From Candidatus Bathyarchaeota archaeon (GTDB taxonomy: Archaea; Thermoproteota; Bathyarchaeia; Bathyarchaeales; Bathycorpusculaceae), in NCBI GenBank assembly GCA_963828195.1, contig CAWHDT010000005.1:512001-576000 (forward strand): a stretch of 64,000 bases of DNA, read 5' to 3'. Position 1 is the stretch's first letter. The number at the start of each line of letters is the position of its first letter. Position numbers and translations under genes: made by a program. This document shows, piece after piece, positions 4,513-64,000 of the stretch. Under the pieces are notes generated by a model. The model was not told the origin of the DNA, ran no database searches, and saw only the letters and a list, made by a program, of their open reading frames with translations.

Positions 4513-5865
4513 TTAGGGACCACCACTTATTATCTTTGAAATTCGCACGGCTAGGTCTGTAATTTGAAGAACTGATGGCAATGCCTTCTCTATCCCTTCC
4601 CATATACTTTTGAGCATACTCTTCTTCGGATTGGGCTTTTGAAGTTCTTCATTGAAACAATCGAATAACTCCGCAGCCTCTTTGTTGCCTGTCTTTTCAA
4701 TTTCTTTAGCTACTTGCAGAAGAGCCATCGCAGTATCTCTGTCGTATTTCTTTTGGATTTTGTTAAAAGATCGTTTTACTTTGGATCTATTGATTATCGT
4801 AGAGTTATTGATATTGCTAAAAATGTCTCCCGTATGCAATTCTCCTATGTTTATTGTTATTCCCGCATAGGATTTATAAGCATTAATGCGCTCGGTGTTT
4901 AAGCTGTTGTCAAACAATTCTTTGATTGTGAATTCTACAGGATTTTCAAAATGTTGGTAGCATTCATCAAAATCAGTAAGGATGGGCGGGTTATTCATTC
5001 CTGAATGCCTCGAGGCGTAATCCTTCAGCCAATCCACTGCCTCTCTCAAACTCTTTTTCGACCCCGGATTAAATGAGCAAAACGACCACATTTTTGCCAT
5101 ATTTGTTGTATACCCATCCAACTTGAGCTGCGTTTTGTCGGGATCCTCATAGTCAAAGTATGGGCTTGGGAACATTATTGCCACATTTGCGAGTAATCGG
5201 TTCTCAGGAGAGGATTCAATAATTTCGAAGTCTTCTGCGAATAGACAATACTTAGGTACATCTCGAGAGTATTGAAAGATGGATAAATTAGTTGGTAGCA
5301 GCTTAAGTGAACCTGTGAGGTTGGTAATGCAACCTCCCGTCTTCTTAATAGGCTCTATCAAAGCTCGATATTGTTCTTTATCCAATGCAACGGGGATTCC
5401 TTCATGAACAGCTCCCGTAGAAGTAGCACCCAAAAAATGAGTTTCTGCATCGTCCACCTTCTTTGAACCCAACCGCACGGAACCCACGCCTCCGAGCACC
5501 ATTTTAAGCTTTCCAAAGGGCTGGTACTCCGCCTTTTCGAAATCAAAAAATTTGTTAGCCGCAGCCCTTGACTGAATCGCCTCTTCTGTAAAATATCTTC
5601 CTGGCGAATAGGGCAACCATTCGGTTAAATGGAAGTTTTCTAGATGAACATTCATTTGCTCGAAGTGAGTGCCTTTTATTGCGTGCAACCAGAAAGTTTC
5701 GTTATTTTTATAGGTGAAGTTTTTCTTCGATGTTCTTGCTTTAAAAGGGTGCTTATAGAGAGCTAAATCAAAAAAATCAGCGAAAAGCCGGACGAAGTCA
5801 GTTTTGTTAATCTTGCTGACTGGGGCTCCTTTGAAGCCCAAGAAACTTTTTCTATCCACATCCAT
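4513..5865 (-). CDS. Hypothetical protein (about 450 aa) with C-terminal helical domain; island cargo
   Basis: Long ORF; ATG at 5865 chosen to avoid overlap with the 6072 gene; no family confidently recognised. Confidence 0.7.
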   Translation of the reverse strand: MDVDRKSFLGFKGAPVSKINKTDFVRLFADFFDLALYKHPFKARTSKKNFTYKNNETFWLHAIKGTHFEQMNVHLENFHLTEWLPYSPGRYFTEEAIQSRAAANKFFDFEKAEYQPFGKLKMVLGGVGSVRLGSKKVDDAETHFLGATSTGAVHEGIPVALDKEQYRALIEPIKKTGGCITNLTGSLKLLPTNLSIFQYSRDVPKYCLFAEDFEIIESSPENRLLANVAIMFPSPYFDYEDPDKTQLKLDGYTTNMAKMWSFCSFNPGSKKSLREAVDWLKDYASRHSGMNNPPILTDFDECYQHFENPVEFTIKELFDNSLNTERINAYKSYAGITINIGELHTGDIFSNINNSTIINRSKVKRSFNKIQKKYDRDTAMALLQVAKEIEKTGNKEAAELFDCFNEELQKPNPKKSMLKSIWEGIEKALPSVLQITDLAVRISKIISGGP

Positions 5866-41396: not shown

Positions 41397-42923
41397 CTAC
41401 TTTGTCATTGGTTCACTCCAAAAAAGGTAAACTTTCGTTTGTGAAAGTATCCCTACGAGCTTGATTAGTTTGGCAATTTTCGGCATCTCCGCATTTCTAA
41501 TGCTTTGAATATACTCGGATGTTGTTCCGTAGGCTCGATGCCCAGTAACCGCAAACTCCTTTTTGAACCGCGGATGCTTATTCTTAATTAATGATCCTTT
41601 AAGCATATCCATTTGTGCAGGGGTTAGACTTTGAAGTTTTTCTTTGACATACCGTTCGCTGCCCAAAAGCTGCAAGTCAAAACCCAACTCTGACAGTGCC
41701 TTTGAAACTCCCAAAACGCTTTCCACCGATTTTTGCTCAACTATTTTCTGCATACCTGCCTTCTCTGCAAACGGGTTATACTTCGCCATAACCGCAATCA
41801 TCTCAACATAGCATGTACCTACCAGGGGGAGGCTTTCACGGATAAGTTTGGCGCCTAAACCTATGGTTCGATATTTCGGGTGAACAACCACGCGGCTGAC
41901 AATGCTTAGCTGCTTATTCATTTCCTGCATTGACATCTTCGGCAGCACCAGACGCCTTCCATAGCAGCTTGGCGGAGGATAACTGTACACTACCACGCCG
42001 CAGAGCTCGTCACCCCGGATTAATCGAAAAATCTTGCGGGGAACAGCAACGTTGTGCCCTCGATAATGAAAACCGCTGAGCATGTGCCAATCATCAATGC
42101 TTCCCTGTTCAAACTTCATTTCTTGAATCAAACTGCACTCTTCAGCGGCATCTTTAGCGCCATAATTGATTTGAATTTCTTGCCCAAACCTCTTGTGAAC
42201 ATGAACGCTGGGATTAAGGTCAGCCAACAGGTCTCCGTGAGTTGTAGCTGCAATCACGGCTTTGCCCTGTTGCCGACCGATTTTCTGCAGGTTAAACGCA
42301 ATAATCTTCGCAGTATCCCTGTCCAAGCATGCGGCGAACTCGTCCATAAGCCACCACTGCCGCCCGCTTTCGATGAGCTTGGCAATTCTGTAACGGTACT
42401 TCTGGCCGTCGCTCAGTTGATTGTAGGTTCGGAGAAAAAGGAAGGCATCGTTCAACCCTACTTTGCTCAGCAAAGCTAAGCCTTCTTCCACTGTTGCACC
42501 GACTGTTTCAATCAGGGGTTTTTCAGGATCCACTGCGACTTCAGATAAATCCGCTGCCTCATCGCCGAGATCTGCCCTTATTGCCCGCAGCAAAACGCTT
42601 TTGCCTGACCCAGAATCCCCCGTAATATACACGACATCTCGCGGCCCAATCGCTAGTTCGGCATCAAGAACCTTGAACTTCTGCGCCTCATCAATGCCCA
42701 AACCGAAAGCTTCAGCAACAACAAGGCTCCGAGCAGTAAGTCGGGCGTGCGTTTCGTAGCTTATGTTAAAAGTGAACTTGCCCTCTGCCCTATCGTAGAC
42801 CCGGCGAAACTGCTTTATACGGAAAAACTCGGTCCGCCTCCGCGATATACGGCATTCACCATTCACACTATGCTCCGCCAGTTTCTTTCGGACACGAGTT
42901 AAGTCAGATTTTCCCTTTCTCAT
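41397..42923 (-). CDS. ABC-type ATPase fused to GNAT acetyltransferase (COG2401-like)
   Basis: GDSGSGKS, LSDGQKYR and DEFAACLD; SRVVVHPKYRTIGLG and NPFAEKAGM. Confidence 0.88.
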   Translation of the reverse strand: MRKGKSDLTRVRKKLAEHSVNGECRISRRRTEFFRIKQFRRVYDRAEGKFTFNISYETHARLTARSLVVAEAFGLGIDEAQKFKVLDAELAIGPRDVVYITGDSGSGKSVLLRAIRADLGDEAADLSEVAVDPEKPLIETVGATVEEGLALLSKVGLNDAFLFLRTYNQLSDGQKYRYRIAKLIESGRQWWLMDEFAACLDRDTAKIIAFNLQKIGRQQGKAVIAATTHGDLLADLNPSVHVHKRFGQEIQINYGAKDAAEECSLIQEMKFEQGSIDDWHMLSGFHYRGHNVAVPRKIFRLIRGDELCGVVVYSYPPPSCYGRRLVLPKMSMQEMNKQLSIVSRVVVHPKYRTIGLGAKLIRESLPLVGTCYVEMIAVMAKYNPFAEKAGMQKIVEQKSVESVLGVSKALSELGFDLQLLGSERYVKEKLQSLTPAQMDMLKGSLIKNKHPRFKKEFAVTGHRAYGTTSEYIQSIRNAEMPKIAKLIKLVGILSQTKVYLFWSEPMTK

Positions 42924-49445: not shown

Positions 49446-50225
49446 ATGCTATTGAAGGGAAAGAGAATAATTGTAACAGGCGGAGTTACAGGAATTGGAA
49501 AAGCAACAGTATTGGCATGCGCCCGAGAAGGCGCAAAAGTAGTTTCTATCTCACGAGCCAAACCCACTGAAGAGCGAGTACAAAAGGTGATAAACGCAGC
49601 AAACGAACTTGGAGCTGGACAAGCCACCCACATGCAGGCCGACGTCAGCAACCAATCCATAGTAAACAGTGCTTTTGAAAGAGCAGTTGCTTGGATGGGT
49701 GGATTGGACGTACTCATAAACTGTGCTGGTCTCGAACAACAGAAACCGGCAGAGGATCTTACGGAAGATGATTTACATGAGCAATTTGCAGTTCATGTGC
49801 TAGGTACAGCTTTCACGAATGCAGCCGCGTTTCGTTATATGAAAAAAACAGGTGGTTCAATAGTCAATTATGCCTCTTATGCTGGAGTTTGCGGGATGCC
49901 GGGAATGCCGTCATATAGTGCTGCTAAGGGAGCGGTAATTGGTTACTCAAGAACCATTGCAAAAGATTGGGCGCAATACTGGATTAGAGTCAACATAGTA
50001 TGCCCTGGTGTCTTGACCGAGCTCGCAGAGTCATGGTATAAAGAGATGTCACCTGAGAGAATGGCGCAGATTAACGCTTGGATGGCAGCTACGATACCTT
50101 TAGGTGGCAAGCTTGGCAAAATGGAAGATGCCGCAAACCTAAATGTGTTCTTGGCAAGTGACATGTCGCGTTTTGTGCATGGACAGACCATCGGCGTAGA
50201 TGGCGGCATGATGATGAGCCGATAA
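49446..50225 (+). CDS. Short-chain dehydrogenase/reductase (cargo)
   Basis: TGGVTGIG, INCAG, YSAAK and IRVNIVCPG motifs. Confidence 0.93.
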   Translation: MLLKGKRIIVTGGVTGIGKATVLACAREGAKVVSISRAKPTEERVQKVINAANELGAGQATHMQADVSNQSIVNSAFERAVAWMGGLDVLINCAGLEQQKPAEDLTEDDLHEQFAVHVLGTAFTNAAAFRYMKKTGGSIVNYASYAGVCGMPGMPSYSAAKGAVIGYSRTIAKDWAQYWIRVNIVCPGVLTELAESWYKEMSPERMAQINAWMAATIPLGGKLGKMEDAANLNVFLASDMSRFVHGQTIGVDGGMMMSR

Positions 50226-59247: not shown

Positions 59248-59376
59248 ACTTTCACCTCTCAAAACTTTTGTTTGCCCGTTTCTCCCAGCCAAGAAGCCAA
59301 AACAAGATAGCTTCTTCAACTGGACAAAAAAATAAAAATGGAAACTAAACGTAGAGACCCAAACGAAACAGCAAGT

Positions 59377-60309
59377 TTAGCTTGTAGCTAACCCCGTTAC
59401 TTTCACTATTGCTTCTCCATACGTCACACAAGGCGAATACCTTGTACTCAACGTTACATCAACGGAATCGAATTCTTTTTTGATCTCCAAATCAGACGTC
59501 AAAGGGCGTTTTAATTCGCGGCTGCCTCAACCAGCAACCTTAACGAAAAAGCCCAATGGCGAATAGGCGGCGCTTAGGTTTTGTCCTGTGCTGATTATGT
59601 ATGCGTTTCCAGCTGGAACAACCGTGCTTGCGTGAACCCCCATTCCGAAGATTTCGCCGAGCTTTCCGTTCTGGGTTGGCGTGTCTCCGCCTGCGCCGCC
59701 GTACTGTGCCCACAGACTGAACTGTGGCAGGTACATTACGTCGCGCATGTTCACTGGATTAAGCAGAATTGTGTCAGCGATTAAGCTGTAGCCTTCAATG
59801 GTGGCTTTAGCAGCCAAAATATCTTTGCTGCCGAGCGCGTTTGCAATTGTGAACTCGGTTCCTGTTGCGCCCATGCTTTTACCCGTTGATCCGAAGCTGT
59901 TTCCTGCTGCTGAATCAATAACTGTCATGCAGTCGCTGTCAATTGTGTAAGCCATTCGCCTTGCAAGTCGTCGCAGTTGGTCTTCAATCACTGGAATGTA
60001 TAGGTCTTCGATGTTTTCTCGGCTGATGCGTTCACGCAAACCCTTCTTGTACGGCGTCACAGTGATGGTGTTGTAGGGCGTGAAATCCATCATGATTTCG
60101 CTGCCCTCCGAAACCTCACTTATCGCTGCTGAGCGACTGCCATTTTGCTTAACGAAAGTAGCGATCTTGCCAGCAACCAGCGGGAACTCTGGAAACAGTT
60201 TTTTGACAACCAAAGCGGGCATTGTTAGCTCTACGATTTTTTTGTGCAGCGATGGGTACGCTATGGCTCCTGTGCTATCCCATGAAAGTGCATCTTTAAC
60301 GAAACTCAA
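59377..60309 (-). CDS. HK97-fold major capsid protein, join(59541..60309, 59377..59513), 301 aa after splicing
   Basis: VSEGSEI, PYKKG..ISRENIED, LLNP and GEIFGMGV; exon 2 IKRPLTSDLEIKKEFDSVDVTLSTRYSPCVTYGEAIVKVT supplies the usual C-terminal strands. Confidence 0.88.
59514..59540 (-). other. Putative 27-nt bulge-helix-bulge pre-mRNA intron
   Basis: GGGC UUUU UCGU [UAA] GGUUGC loop GCAGCC GCGA [AUU] AAAA C GCCC; contains in-frame UGA. Confidence 0.85.
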
Positions 60310-60321
60310 CTTAAATCACCT

Positions 60322-60798
60322 TTACGGAATACAAGAAAGCAAAGCGTAAATGACTTGGCCGGGCGCTGTGGAACTGGTTAATGCTCTGCCGATCCATATT
60401 TCTGCGTTGTCAAGTTGGGGTTGCATTGCGGCTTGCGTATACGCTGCGGGAGCTGTCATGACCACTACGCCTGCAACTTGTCCGTTTGCGTCGCTCGCTA
60501 TTCTTTGCCCCGCCGTGATGGCTCCTGAAGCAGTTACCAGCCCCGTTGTATTGTTGCCTGAAGCGGTTACCCTGACGAGCCCCCTGCAAATCACAGTTAC
60601 GTTTGAGCCGGCTGCGCCGCCTGTTAAAGCAACACCTATGACGCTTTTGCTTGGTCCAGCGGTTGGCTTGACGAGCGGGATGAATCCGGGGTTGCTGATG
60701 TAAACTACTTGTCCAGCAGCCACGGTTGCTCCCGTGTCAACTTGAGCAGTTATTAGGTAGCGGTCGCTAACTAGTGCAGTTGTTCCTTCTAAAGACAT
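60322..60798 (-). CDS. Capsid cement/decoration protein (DUF2190-like)
   Basis: VIGVALT...VTVICRG...AITAGQRIASDANG...IGRAL. Confidence 0.8.
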   Translation of the reverse strand: MSLEGTTALVSDRYLITAQVDTGATVAAGQVVYISNPGFIPLVKPTAGPSKSVIGVALTGGAAGSNVTVICRGLVRVTASGNNTTGLVTASGAITAGQRIASDANGQVAGVVVMTAPAAYTQAAMQPQLDNAEIWIGRALTSSTAPGQVIYALLSCIP

Positions 60799-60809
60799 TC
60801 AAAGTCACC

Positions 60810-61925
60810 TTATTGGAATCCTGAAAGTCTCTTATGCGCTTTAAGGAGGTCTTTAAACCAGTTGTAATTGCCAAGTGCGTCCCGTTGAGCTTCGTCGACG
60901 GCTACTATGCCTCTGCCGCTTGCACGCTTAGATTCAACGTCAGATCCTTCGTCTTCCGTGTCATCTTCGCCTTCGTCTTCTGGTTGAAGCTGTTTTGAGA
61001 GCTCGCTTATTTTCTTGCTCAAGCTCCGCTTTGTGGCTTTTTTTGCAACTTCGCCTTCAAGCTCGGCTACTTTACTCTTTAAAGCTTCAACTTCAGATTC
61101 GGAAGAATTTGTCTGCGTTATCTGCTTCTCAAGCTGCTGCAGCTGATCCATGAAATCTTCGTACGTCAACTTTTTCGGCGCTGATTCTCCTGGTGCAATG
61201 TTAACTATGCCTTGTGCCTGATATGGAGAAGCACCATACTGACCATTATGTTCAGACATGTGCCTCACCTCTCCTTTGCTTTTCAGATTATTTTTGTTTT
61301 CAGGTTCTTGCGGCCTTCGCCTAGAACCCACATCATCACCTGTGTAAACAAATGACTGCGAATCGGTAACTGACTTGAGAATAGCATCCCACTGCCCCGC
61401 GTTCATGGCAGCGAAAAAACCCACGGGGGCAAACGCTGTATCCTTGTACGCTGGACTTGCGACAATGCTTAATTCCCGAACCTTCGGCTTATGGATAATT
61501 TCCCATGCGCCAGGACACAAGTGCACAAGCATGCCTTCTTTGCGCGTTGGGCGCTTGCATTTGCTGCATTCAACATCTTCGCTGTCAAGCTGAATACTCA
61601 CATGCGTCACGTAGCTGCGAAGTATTTTCTCAATCAGCTTTTCTTCCCCGACTTCAGCGCGGAAAAGAACCTGATCGCCTTCACGCTTAGCCTCAGAAAC
61701 TTTCCCCACAACCATCAACGCACTCTCCGCATGATCCACACGCAACTGAGCACCAGCAAGGCTTGAAGCGACAAAATCCAAGTCTTCACTTGGAACCTGC
61801 CACTTATTCGCGTTAACACTCGTGTCGATGGCTACACCCTCGATGTTCACGAGTTTCTCGTGCAGCGCGTACTGAGCGCTCACGCCTTCCTGAGCCTTAA
61901 AAGGCACAAAATAACGTAGTTGCAT
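60810..61925 (-). CDS. Prohead protease-scaffold fusion
   Basis: LRVDH...VGKV, HVSI and ELSIVASPAY; coiled-coil acidic C-terminus. Confidence 0.85.
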   Translation of the reverse strand: MQLRYFVPFKAQEGVSAQYALHEKLVNIEGVAIDTSVNANKWQVPSEDLDFVASSLAGAQLRVDHAESALMVVGKVSEAKREGDQVLFRAEVGEEKLIEKILRSYVTHVSIQLDSEDVECSKCKRPTRKEGMLVHLCPGAWEIIHKPKVRELSIVASPAYKDTAFAPVGFFAAMNAGQWDAILKSVTDSQSFVYTGDDVGSRRRPQEPENKNNLKSKGEVRHMSEHNGQYGASPYQAQGIVNIAPGESAPKKLTYEDFMDQLQQLEKQITQTNSSESEVEALKSKVAELEGEVAKKATKRSLSKKISELSKQLQPEDEGEDDTEDEGSDVESKRASGRGIVAVDEAQRDALGNYNWFKDLLKAHKRLSGFQ

Positions 61926-62273: not shown

Positions 62274-63671
62274 TTATTCTCCTCGCTCTTGTCCTTGGTT
62301 TATCTGTTCCATGACACCTTTCACGGTTTGCTCCACAATTTTCTGACCTTCACTTTTGGGTTTAGGCTTAAGCGTTGGCAACCCTTGGTCCTTTGGTTCT
62401 GCTGGGTACCCGAGTTGCATGCGGGCTTCGGCGATGCTTATTATGCCGTTTTGCACCAGGTCGCTGATGTACTTGGCTTTATCCTCTATGGGGGCTTCCC
62501 AAATTGGCCGCCACGTGATCTTGGGAATTTCAAAGCCCACACCAAACGCGTGTTCTATTAGCTGTTTAAACAGGACAGTTTCCAATATGTCACCGATGAT
62601 CTCCTGCATCATCCGCAACCGGGTAACGTACTCCTGCATGCATATTTCAGCCGTAGCGCGGTTGGTGCTTTCGCTTTCTCCAAGAAAAATCTTCGGCACC
62701 CCAAGGACCGCTTCCCGCTGCTTGTAGAGGTAGTCAAGCCAGAACTGGATGTTCACGTCTTTGGTTAGGCTTGGAATGACGTCAACGGCGACGTCGCCGC
62801 GCACAAACACGTCGGTGGCTGGTTTGCGGGTGCTGAAAGCCTCCATAAGCGACTGCAACTGGGCATCGCTGAATGGTCTCTCGGGCGTGCCTGCTTTCAC
62901 AACAAGCATCGGCTTAGTATAAGTGTGGCAGATAACGGAGAGGTCATCTTCAAGTTGATCCAGCAGCGCCTGAACCTTAAGCAGCGGCCTAAGCAGGCTT
63001 GTGCCGTAGCTGCTCTCATACCACCAGCTTTTCGCGCCCCAGCGAAAATGCACCATATCCTGAGCAGCAAAAACAACCGGCGGCACAGTGAGAAGCTGAA
63101 TGTACCCGAAAATGTCTCCGTACTCGTTATGGCGTACGCGCATGTGGACGGGGTCAAGAGGCTTAAGCCATGTAACCTCGCCGTTGGTTTCGTCTCGGCA
63201 GATTTCTAAGAAAGCGTTTCCGAACACAAGCATGTCCGACGCAACGATGCGCAGGGTTTGCAGGATGTTTTGTTCGTCAAGCCAATCCGTGAGCCACCCG
63301 CGAACGTTGTCGGTTCCGCCGTTTAGCTCGAAACCGTTGCTTATGGCGAGGTTAACGGTGACATCGACCGCCGCCTTGATGTACGGAGTAAACGTGTACA
63401 GATCCTTGTACTTGGGCAGGTCCTCGATTGGCGTTGCGCCCCAGATGCGATCCATGTAGGCCGTGTAGGGCGGCGTAACGAAGCCTGCGCCTGAACCTTT
63501 AAGCATGTACCGTGAAACGTAGCCGTAGAGCATGTCATCTTTCTTCCAGCTAAGAGGCACCTCCTCCTCAATCTGGCGCCTGCTAACGTCCTGCGGAACA
63601 TCCCGTTCAGCAGAAAACCTGCTCTTTACGGTTTGGAAGCTTTTGCGGATTTTTTGTGAGACAAAACTCAT
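62274..63671 (-). CDS. Portal protein
   Basis: DMLVFGNAFLEI, LKPLDP, YGTSLL, VLGVPKIFLG and GIISIAEARMQLGY motifs. Confidence 0.92.
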   Translation of the reverse strand: MSFVSQKIRKSFQTVKSRFSAERDVPQDVSRRQIEEEVPLSWKKDDMLYGYVSRYMLKGSGAGFVTPPYTAYMDRIWGATPIEDLPKYKDLYTFTPYIKAAVDVTVNLAISNGFELNGGTDNVRGWLTDWLDEQNILQTLRIVASDMLVFGNAFLEICRDETNGEVTWLKPLDPVHMRVRHNEYGDIFGYIQLLTVPPVVFAAQDMVHFRWGAKSWWYESSYGTSLLRPLLKVQALLDQLEDDLSVICHTYTKPMLVVKAGTPERPFSDAQLQSLMEAFSTRKPATDVFVRGDVAVDVIPSLTKDVNIQFWLDYLYKQREAVLGVPKIFLGESESTNRATAEICMQEYVTRLRMMQEIIGDILETVLFKQLIEHAFGVGFEIPKITWRPIWEAPIEDKAKYISDLVQNGIISIAEARMQLGYPAEPKDQGLPTLKPKPKSEGQKIVEQTVKGVMEQINQGQERGE

Positions 63672-63727
63672 TTTTTACTACACCTTAAGTAATATTATTT
63701 TTTGATAAGATTTTGTTTCAACGTTAC

Positions 63728-64000
63728 TCAGCCTGTAAGATTTGGGGAAGATGGGGAGCTGCATTCAAGGTTAAGTCTTTGGGCAGACATGTTCAGAACG
63801 GGTTGCTTGCAAGCAATGCGGGTAATGTCTGCTTGCCTGCTCCACCGTACCTCAACACGTTTGCTCATGTCTCGCAGAAGAATAGCCTGGTACTCTTTGA
63901 CCTGAAATCCAAAAAATTCTTGCGCGAAAAGTACTGGATCTTCAGGCACAATTATGCTCAGGAGAGCTGTTTCAGGTGCCTTCTGACTTTCTTGGTGACC
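63728..64000 (-). pseudogene. Terminase large subunit N-terminal remnant
   Basis: DPVLFAQEFFGFQVKEYQAILL...VRWSRQA, then the Walker A GKT is lost and the ORF ends 57 nt before the portal. Confidence 0.75.

Follow-up and report, generated by a model that had tools for sequence, protein, structure and literature searches.

Bulge–helix–bulge (BHB) motifs, which are described in PMC5829648 as two 3-nucleotide (nt) bulges split by a 4-base-pair (bp) helix at the intron–exon boundary, have rarely been reported in archaeal mRNA. According to the account of Schwarz et al. 2020 (PMC7714728), cbf5 is the only archaeal mRNA with a reported BHB intron besides the 5′ leader of HVO_1309. The crenarchaeal cbf5 introns span 16–44 bp (Yokobori et al. 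2009, PMC2738675), and the same paper cites putative 12-bp 'introns' in protein genes of an archaeal virus (Peng et al.), the splicing of which was never shown. Here, a 27-nt insert is described in the major capsid protein gene of a provirus that lies in a 64,000-nt stretch of DNA (the window; contig CAWHDT010000005.1, positions 512,001–576,000) from a Candidatus Bathyarchaeota archaeon (GCA_963828195.1). Comparison with homologous viral genes indicates that this insert is very probably an archaeal tRNA-type (BHB) intron.

The main text of a survey of Bathyarchaeia viruses (PMC10848311) contains no mention of introns, splicing, bulges, frameshifts or stop codons, and no BHB intron in a viral gene is reported in the full-text literature searched, which mostly excluded subscription journals. 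An earlier note on this DNA, made from its letters alone, had stated that no such intron was known in a viral structural gene; the literature searched agrees, with the 12-bp 'introns' of Peng et al., as cited, to be set beside that statement.

The interrupted capsid gene and its BHB motif

The open reading frame (ORF) 60309..59527 on the minus strand has a TTG start and encodes 260 amino acids (aa) of an HK97-type major capsid protein, ending ...SPLGFFVKVAG at an in-frame TGA (59527–59529). Past this codon, the capsid frame goes on as GSRELKRPLTSDLEIKK...VTGLATS until the TAA at 59377–59379, opening with GSRELKRPL and closing with GLATS. The N-terminal part matches Pfam family PF25209 (Phage_capsid_4; E 7e-9) and the PHROGs profile phrog_1650 (major head protein; E 1e-15). 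The latter profile is covered only to position 251 of 300 by the window ORF, versus 299 of 300 by the uninterrupted 301-aa homologue P0003, and the downstream stretch is therefore taken as the missing capsid C-terminus. Removing 59540..59514 (27 nt) yields a 301-aa product that reads ...GFFVIKRPL..., with ATA (Ile) as its junction codon. This recomputation agrees with the earlier note, which had reached the same excision and protein length by placing the cuts of the archaeal splicing endonuclease EndA after the second base of each bulge.

The minimum free energy (MFE) fold of 59495–59560(-), computed with ViennaRNA, consists exactly of a helix, a 3-nt bulge, a 4-bp helix, a second 3-nt bulge and a helix, at -23.4 kcal/mol (z = -2.57; 4 of 200 shuffles fold equally well). 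It displays the BHB in its strict form, with 3-nt bulges on opposite strands around a 4-bp helix, together with the flanking helices h and h′, and it is identical to the structure that the earlier note had drawn. Rfam gives no match to 59300–59700 at E values up to 1, and ARAGORN finds no tRNA in the window.

A strict motif scan of both strands (4-bp central helix, 3-nt bulges, outer helix of at least 4 bp and inner helix of at least 5 bp) returned 3322 matches in the 2.83-Mb host genome and 2295 in a triplet-shuffled control, or about 6e-4 per position. By itself, the strict BHB motif is common by chance and not significant. Chance does not account for where the insert lies, for how its removal restores the frame or for its conservation across homologues.

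It is proposed that exon and intron bases of the pre-mRNA would pair into the helix, bulge, 4-bp helix, bulge and helix described above, that host EndA would then cut after the second base of each bulge, and that host RtcB would join the exons. The 27 nt with their in-frame TGA would thereby be lost and the ATA codon made, giving a 301-aa capsid protein of HK97 fold in which GFFVIKRPL is contiguous.

Inserts at the same site in homologous genes

A protein search returned 238 relatives, of which the 120 best clusters were compared. Most of these 120 are 297 aa long and carry GFFVIKRPL without interruption, as the earlier note had expected of intron-less homologues, and five (P0049, P0074, P0075, P0106 and P0121) end right after GFFV plus K (K-V/A-A...). 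At the DNA level, 25 genome loci, almost all labelled as Bathyarchaeia or Bathyarchaeota metagenome-assembled genomes (MAGs), and 80 IMG/VR loci were examined at site 256/257. An insert is present in 11 of these 105 loci and absent from 94, eight of which have GFFI or GFFC variants.

Further alleles were obtained through DNA pattern scans of viral and metagenome contigs, the metagenome scan yielding 44 loci. Of the 72 pattern matches, 36, located in the metagenome loci and in four viral loci, were chance matches outside capsid genes and were dropped. Inserts at site 256/257 were found in 36 capsid loci and represent 21 distinct sequences, with lengths of 25 nt (one allele), 26 nt (one), 27 nt (six, including the window), 28 nt (one), 29 nt (five), 30 nt (two) and 68 nt (five). 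Covarying BHB inserts at this site, which the earlier note had predicted for other homologues, thus occur in 21 distinct alleles.

Excision by the BHB rule rejoins the frames in all 21 distinct alleles, and the junction is always A|TA, encoding Ile. In each case, the product carries the consensus GFFVIKRPL and continues through the conserved capsid C-terminus to the normal stop. An in-frame stop lies within 19 of the 21 inserts.

Spliced intron-bearing genes would always give ATA as the junction codon, and the corresponding Ile is encoded by ATA in 15 of 91 intron-less genes and by ATC or ATT in 72. The intron-less gene of L013, sister to the intron-bearing L164, has an ATA junction codon, as expected for precise loss. 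The L013 contig (DATHCJ010000010.1) is binned as a Limnocylindrales (Chloroflexota) bacterium and carries an archaeal-virus capsid gene; it is likely a mis-binned Bathyarchaeia virus contig.

Selection on RNA structure and exons

Across the 16 short alleles, 97.9% of cells are paired, versus 41–58% when the pairing partner is slid by 1–3 columns. Five of the six inner-helix pairs have changed on both sides among these alleles, for example from G-C to A-U, and their covariation score was reached by none of 500 shuffles, a significance that is overstated because related sequences are not independent. Similarly, 99.1% of cells are paired in the five 68-nt alleles, in which four pairs show double changes, and the helices kept in both the 16 short and the five long alleles have 96–100% of cells paired. 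The central helix shows zero variation among alleles, an invariance that is uninformative because it is partly forced by the coding sequence and the search pattern. Taken together, these comparisons argue that the BHB structure is maintained by selection through compensatory changes.

The outer helix is built from exon codons. Among the 12 intron-bearing genes retrieved by homology, the Gly codon is GGC and the Arg codon is CGC in 12 of 12, and all eight outer base pairs form in 10 of 12. In the 91 intron-less genes retrieved in the same way, GGC is used in 27 and CGC in 19, and at most seven of the eight outer pairs are present. Synonymous codons in the exons are thus under selection to build the outer helix. 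Furthermore, the ratio of nonsynonymous to synonymous polymorphism (pN/pS) in exon 2 is 0.25 over 20 intron-bearing alleles. This value points to purifying selection on exon 2, and hence to its translation in a frame that only excision would provide.

Further sites in the capsid gene and turnover of inserts

A tblastn screen for frame breaks and stops identified three further sites, at residues ~29, 71 and 207, where the same excision rule restores the consensus. One gene, L115, has two introns, of 28 nt at residue 71 and of 27 nt at residue 256. At site ~29, five of six outer-helix pairs form.

A census free of pattern bias covered 185 homology-retrieved loci with 107 distinct full-length genes. 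Of these genes, 91 lack an insert and 16 are interrupted: 11 at residue 256, two at 207, two at 29 and one (L027) by plain decay. BHB-type interruptions are accordingly present in 15 of 107 distinct genes, or about 14%. When nine other capsid-module proteins were compared by tblastn with all loci, frameshifts were present and insert-type breaks were not. The MAG loci L025 and L027 have plain capsid frameshifts without inserts, with six stops in L027, and are explained either by decay of the proviruses or by indel errors in long-read assemblies.

A scan for BHB motifs that merge ORFs was applied to 176 loci; it flagged site 207 and was too noisy to identify introns in other genes. In the host genome, the motif scan with an ORF-merging filter left 83 candidates, mostly adjacent genes joined by chance. 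The one candidate inspected, at window position ~6579 (28 nt), was rejected as the end of one gene followed by the start of the next, with no intron.

A quick IQ-TREE phylogeny of exon-1 proteins (98 rows, LG+G4) requires at least 11 changes between presence and absence of the insert, seven of which are forced by well-supported branches. The window capsid is closest to L029, which is 95% identical and has a 25-nt insert, followed by the insert-free L028 and L003. Exon-1 proteins do not differ between L023, with its 68-nt insert, and the insert-free L089, and two MAGs each contain one insert-bearing and one insert-free provirus (L023/L016 and L022/L014). This patchiness among close relatives indicates that the inserts turn over within short times, through gain, loss or exchange by recombination, among which the tree cannot tell. 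No other copies of the insert sequences were found in the host genome or in the loci, and no donor was identified.

The introns are most likely tolerated, possibly mobile, elements rather than a proven regulatory device, and a role as a late-gene switch or host-range lock, as floated in the earlier note, is speculation. A stronger proposal would hold that they are actively mobile in Bathyarchaeia tailed viruses and kept for viral benefit. Conserved capsid DNA may be split against host CRISPR or restriction while the mRNA is mended by the host's essential splicing enzymes; alternatively, virion production may be gated on host splicing capacity. Under that proposal, an adaptive strategy relying on host enzymes, instead of neutral hitch-hiking, would be reflected in the four independent sites, in turnover among nearly identical genes and in the in-frame stop that almost all inserts carry. 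For CRISPR evasion, 401 class-level genomes were searched at the DNA level, which returned only short matches (E 5e-4 to 1e-2) and no convincing spacers. The proposal as a whole is judged unlikely.

Alternative explanations

Translational recoding would spare the mRNA from splicing, either through read-through of the stop or through a ribosomal hop over the insert of the kind known from T4 gene 60. A stop and hairpin near the take-off site resemble the T4 gene 60 layout, most alleles have GTA at the 3′ end of the insert as a possible match to a Val take-off codon, and the 27- or 30-nt inserts of 8 of the 21 alleles keep the frame. The other 13 lengths are not divisible by three and so place exon 2 in another DNA frame, and TGA, TAA and TAG are all represented among the stops, so that a recoded stop is excluded and no single recoding fits. 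A hop also fails in its details: in the window, the take-off codon GTT (Val) would face the landing codon TTA, which is not a Val codon (ATA in other alleles), and the product would read GFFVKRPL, one residue short of the consensus. Furthermore, the three other sites have different flanking codons yet the same bulge geometry. Recoding is thus regarded as very improbable.

Equally little probability is given to the possibility that the inserts are non-functional disruptions, either scars of a small palindromic mobile element or products of decay, which would make the capsid genes pseudogenes. The inserts do contain inverted repeats, the large terminase of the window provirus is fragmented, and L025 and L027 show that plain frameshifts occur in this family. 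Decay would not be expected to leave exon 2 open to its normal stop in 21 of 21 alleles at the pN/pS value given above, to keep the structure through compensatory changes or to constrain synonymous exon sites to pair across the insert. Some viral contigs with an intron-bearing capsid gene, such as L115, also have terminase and portal genes that are intact, and the insert sequences have no other copies in the host genome or in the other loci.

A split capsid would consist of the 260-residue protein and a separately initiated peptide of about 41–45 residues, without covalent joining. Such a peptide could start at the TTG of a downstream 41-aa ORF (59502..59377) or, in most alleles, at an ATG five codons into exon 2. 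The same Met is found in intron-less genes (KRPLM), and the window has Thr at this position. The break would fall inside a predicted β-strand, and a split would explain neither the fixed Ile junction nor why 3-nt bulges and a 4-bp helix are kept at four sites and in seven insert lengths. This arrangement is considered extremely unlikely.

Just as remote is translation of the insert as extra residues in a capsid loop, which could apply only to the two stop-free 30-nt alleles, L164 (821–876(-)) and L149 (4853–4908(-)). The earlier note had named homologues with a sense insertion here as telling against an intron. Only these two of the 21 alleles can be read through, as 10 extra residues, and the lengths that are not divisible by three argue against such a reading of the family. 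It is inapplicable to the window, with its TGA, and to the other 18 alleles with a stop or frameshift. The 3′ bulge is missing from the L164 MFE fold, as the sense reading would allow; L164 and L149 differ by compensatory inner-helix changes (columns 19–39 and 21–37), which suggest selection at the RNA level. The two inserts may be introns turning into coding insertions or may still be spliced, and are perhaps exceptions. Finally, a self-splicing group I or II intron was rejected, as the insert is 27 nt long with no Rfam match and a ribozyme core takes hundreds of bases.

Several observations weigh against a BHB intron. Besides the chance frequency of the motif and the kinship that inflates the shuffle controls, many of the 21 alleles were retrieved with a search pattern that prescribed the central helix and some of the outer helix, so that the invariance of these parts is partly by construction, and the unbiased intron-bearing alleles are the 12 retrieved by homology. 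L164 and L149, stop-free and with lengths divisible by three, are readable as coding insertions; in L164, the MFE fold pairs through the 3′ bulge so that it becomes part of one unbroken helix, and the MFE folds of L023 and L091 depart from the ideal motif in the outer region. Cleavage and ligation, and the enzymes responsible, are inferred. The window copy may not be expressed at all, as its provirus is without an intact large terminase, and the structural model described below is only moderately confident (mean pLDDT 68).

Host enzymes and capsid structure

Two EndA paralogues, 184 and 183 aa long, are encoded in the 96%-complete host genome. Each has matches to PF01974 and TIGR00324, and the second also weakly matches β-subunit models. 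The pair is consistent with the (αβ)2 type of EndA, a type described for TACK archaea in PMC5829648, without proving it. One EndA gene is located at host contig C5:510571-511125, ~0.9 kb before the start of the window and ~60 kb from the capsid gene, a proximity that is probably coincidental; the other is at C3:320069-320620. A single RtcB gene is present at C1:44696-46006 (PF01139, E 6e-176), and ARAGORN predicts introns in 10 of the 46 host tRNA genes. PF01509 (TruB_N of Cbf5) has no match in this 96%-complete genome and matches 14 of 14 control genomes; the assembly may lack the host Cbf5 gene, or the gene may have diverged or carry an interruption of its own.

From these genes and the interruptions of the capsid gene at four places in related viruses, it appears that making the capsid protein depends on host tRNA-splicing enzymes, as the earlier note had proposed for this locus.

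An AlphaFold model of an intron-less homologue (mean predicted local distance difference test (pLDDT) score 68; predicted template modelling score 0.67) resembles phage capsids, including HK97, with E about 1e-11 and a template modelling score of about 0.55, in keeping with a predicted HK97 fold. In this model, exon 2 contributes strands E253-267, E273-286 and E292-296, and residues 256/257 lie within the long strand E253-267, in the midst of which an unspliced 9-residue insert would come to lie. According to the model, a truncated protein would lack the last three strands, and a 9-residue insert would disrupt them.

Proviral context

The capsid gene belongs to a head module that comprises the portal, a 103-aa ORF, a 371-aa protein, the decoration protein and the capsid gene (Table 1). 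A tblastn relative of the 371-aa protein adjoins the capsid gene in 124 loci, and by its position this protein may be a protease or scaffold. The module is part of a viral island of ~23 kb between a cytidylate kinase/EMC3/TMCO1-like pair and SecY with a ribosomal-protein operon. In archaea, the SecY/ribosomal-protein operon and the EMC3-like and cytidylate kinase genes are usually close together. The island extends over window positions ~41300–64000 and positions 1–1500 of locus L169, and no integrase or att site was identified in it. A FabG-like reductase gene (49446–50225 (+)) and an ABC-type ATPase gene (41397–42923 (-)) are located within the island or on its margin, perhaps as cargo, perhaps as a sign of its true left border.

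Two fragments of the large terminase lie on opposite strands, ~5 kb apart with SecY in between; in the relative L115, the portal gene adjoins an intact gene for a 469-aa terminase. To judge from this layout, the provirus may have been inactivated through an inversion or deletion, and the element in the window is probably defective because its large terminase is broken. Both exons and the motif of its capsid gene are still intact despite the broken terminase, and what is preserved here is probably the recent remnant of a functional gene. The dependence of capsid synthesis on host splicing may therefore be moot for the window copy.

Elsewhere in the host genome there is another capsid gene, without interruption and 35% identical, along with further terminase genes or fragments of them (C9:172186-173079 (+), C6:21796-23073 (-) and C8:49616-49909 (-)). 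The host therefore carries at least one more head-tailed provirus.

Table 1. Features of the interrupted capsid gene, its neighbours and further insertion sites. Positions refer to the window unless another contig or locus is named.
Feature	Position or locus	Strand	Basis
Major capsid protein exon 1: codons 1–256 and first base of codon 257, TTG start	59541..60309	-	PF25209, phrog_1650; homologues 65–95% identical
Putative BHB intron, 27 nt, in-frame TGA 59527–59529 in hairpin loop	59514..59540	-	MFE fold; homologous inserts at same site
Major capsid protein exon 2: last two bases of codon 257, 44 codons and TAA 59377–59379	59377..59513	-	Aligns with C-terminus of full-length homologues
Whole hBHBh′ motif	59504..59554	-	MFE fold; exon-codon constraint
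Outer helix (exon–exon), 8 bp, one bulged C at 59508	59554–59547 with 59512–59504	-	MFE fold
Central 4-bp helix (exon–intron), UCGU/GCGA	59546–59543 with 59519–59516	-	MFE fold
Bulges UAA and AUU, 3 nt each	59542–59540 and 59515–59513	-	MFE fold
Inner hairpin GGUUGC/GCAGCC (6–7 bp), loop 59533–59526 with TGA	59539–59534 with 59525–59520	-	MFE fold
Head decoration/cement protein gene, just upstream of capsid gene	60322..60798	-	PF09956 Phage_cement_2, E 1e-9
371-aa protein gene, between portal and decoration genes	60810..61925	-	Only sub-threshold coiled-coil Pfam matches, no PHROG
Portal protein gene	62274..63671	-	phrog_9232 portal, E 2e-28
Large terminase fragment, residues ~33–109	63704..63958	-	tblastn with intact 469-aa large terminase of L115
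Second large terminase fragment, residues 427–469	Host contig C5:581103-581231 (locus L169 ~5103–5231), outside window	+	tblastn with L115 large terminase
Insertion site ~207, 24 nt, two in-frame stops	L043, L045		Textbook motif, z = -4.6; excised product nucleotide-identical to intron-less L038
Insertion site ~71, 28 nt	L115, L128		GGGA-GCUG-AAA-hairpin-CAGC-AUA-UCCC; excision restores ...ISEGAEIPMDFTPY...
Insertion site ~29, 30 nt (L091) and 57 nt (L257)	L091, L257		Common central helix CGAG/CUCG and 5′ bulge UUA, quite different inner hairpins; excision restores ...IIELTMPALVV...

Comparison with known systems

The finding places candidate splicing-endonuclease introns in the most essential structural gene of a virus, at four sites and in about one in seven distinct genes of the family, and is thus broader than the single locus of the earlier note. 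If these introns are spliced, the host tRNA-splicing system would be an obligatory host factor for virion assembly, and gene callers would systematically truncate or split such capsid genes, five truncated clusters being already visible. The family would also offer a natural series of presence and absence alleles for gain and loss of BHB introns, a question long open for tRNA introns, and a directly testable system that consists of a short RNA substrate and two host enzymes.

The closest described counterpart is cbf5, which likewise has a short BHB intron in a protein gene, with the tRNA splicing endonuclease as the enzyme presumed to cut it (Watanabe et al. 2002; PMC2738675). As described in PMC2738675, cbf5 introns resemble the capsid inserts in that their lengths may or may not be divisible by three and in their patchy distribution, with inferred gain and loss. 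Unlike cbf5, which encodes a cellular RNA-modification enzyme, the capsid gene is viral and structural, from Bathyarchaeia viruses, and its family has at least four insertion sites, with two introns in one gene. Splicing has been shown experimentally for cbf5, whereas that of the capsid introns is inferred.

The BHB in the 5′ untranslated region of Haloferax volcanii HVO_1309, as reported in PMC7714728, is likewise a target of the splicing endonuclease in mRNA, beyond tRNA and rRNA. It lies in the leader of a cellular gene and leaves the reading frame uninterrupted, unlike the capsid intron. The viral 12-bp 'introns' of Peng et al. are similarly short inserts in archaeal-virus protein genes that were proposed to be introns; the passage citing them in PMC2738675 reports neither frame restoration by the BHB rule nor covariation.

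The archaeal pre-tRNA intron at position 37/38 has the identical geometry, and the same enzymes are presumed to act on both. Its elements also come in the same order, from the outer helix through the central helix, the 5′ bulge, the hairpin, the central helix and the 3′ bulge back to the outer helix. With the insert taken out, the capsid exons would pair into an 8-bp stem closed by a 7-nt loop, in which the insertion point follows the sixth base and so matches that in an anticodon loop. Unlike those of a pre-tRNA, the flanks of the capsid intron encode protein, with no tRNA found by ARAGORN and no Rfam match.

Among viruses, phage group I introns, which are large self-splicing ribozymes, are found in structural and DNA-metabolism genes. 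Like the capsid inserts, they must leave the viral mRNA before a functional protein can be made. Unlike them, the capsid inserts are only 24–68 nt long, contain no ribozyme and would rely wholly on host protein enzymes.

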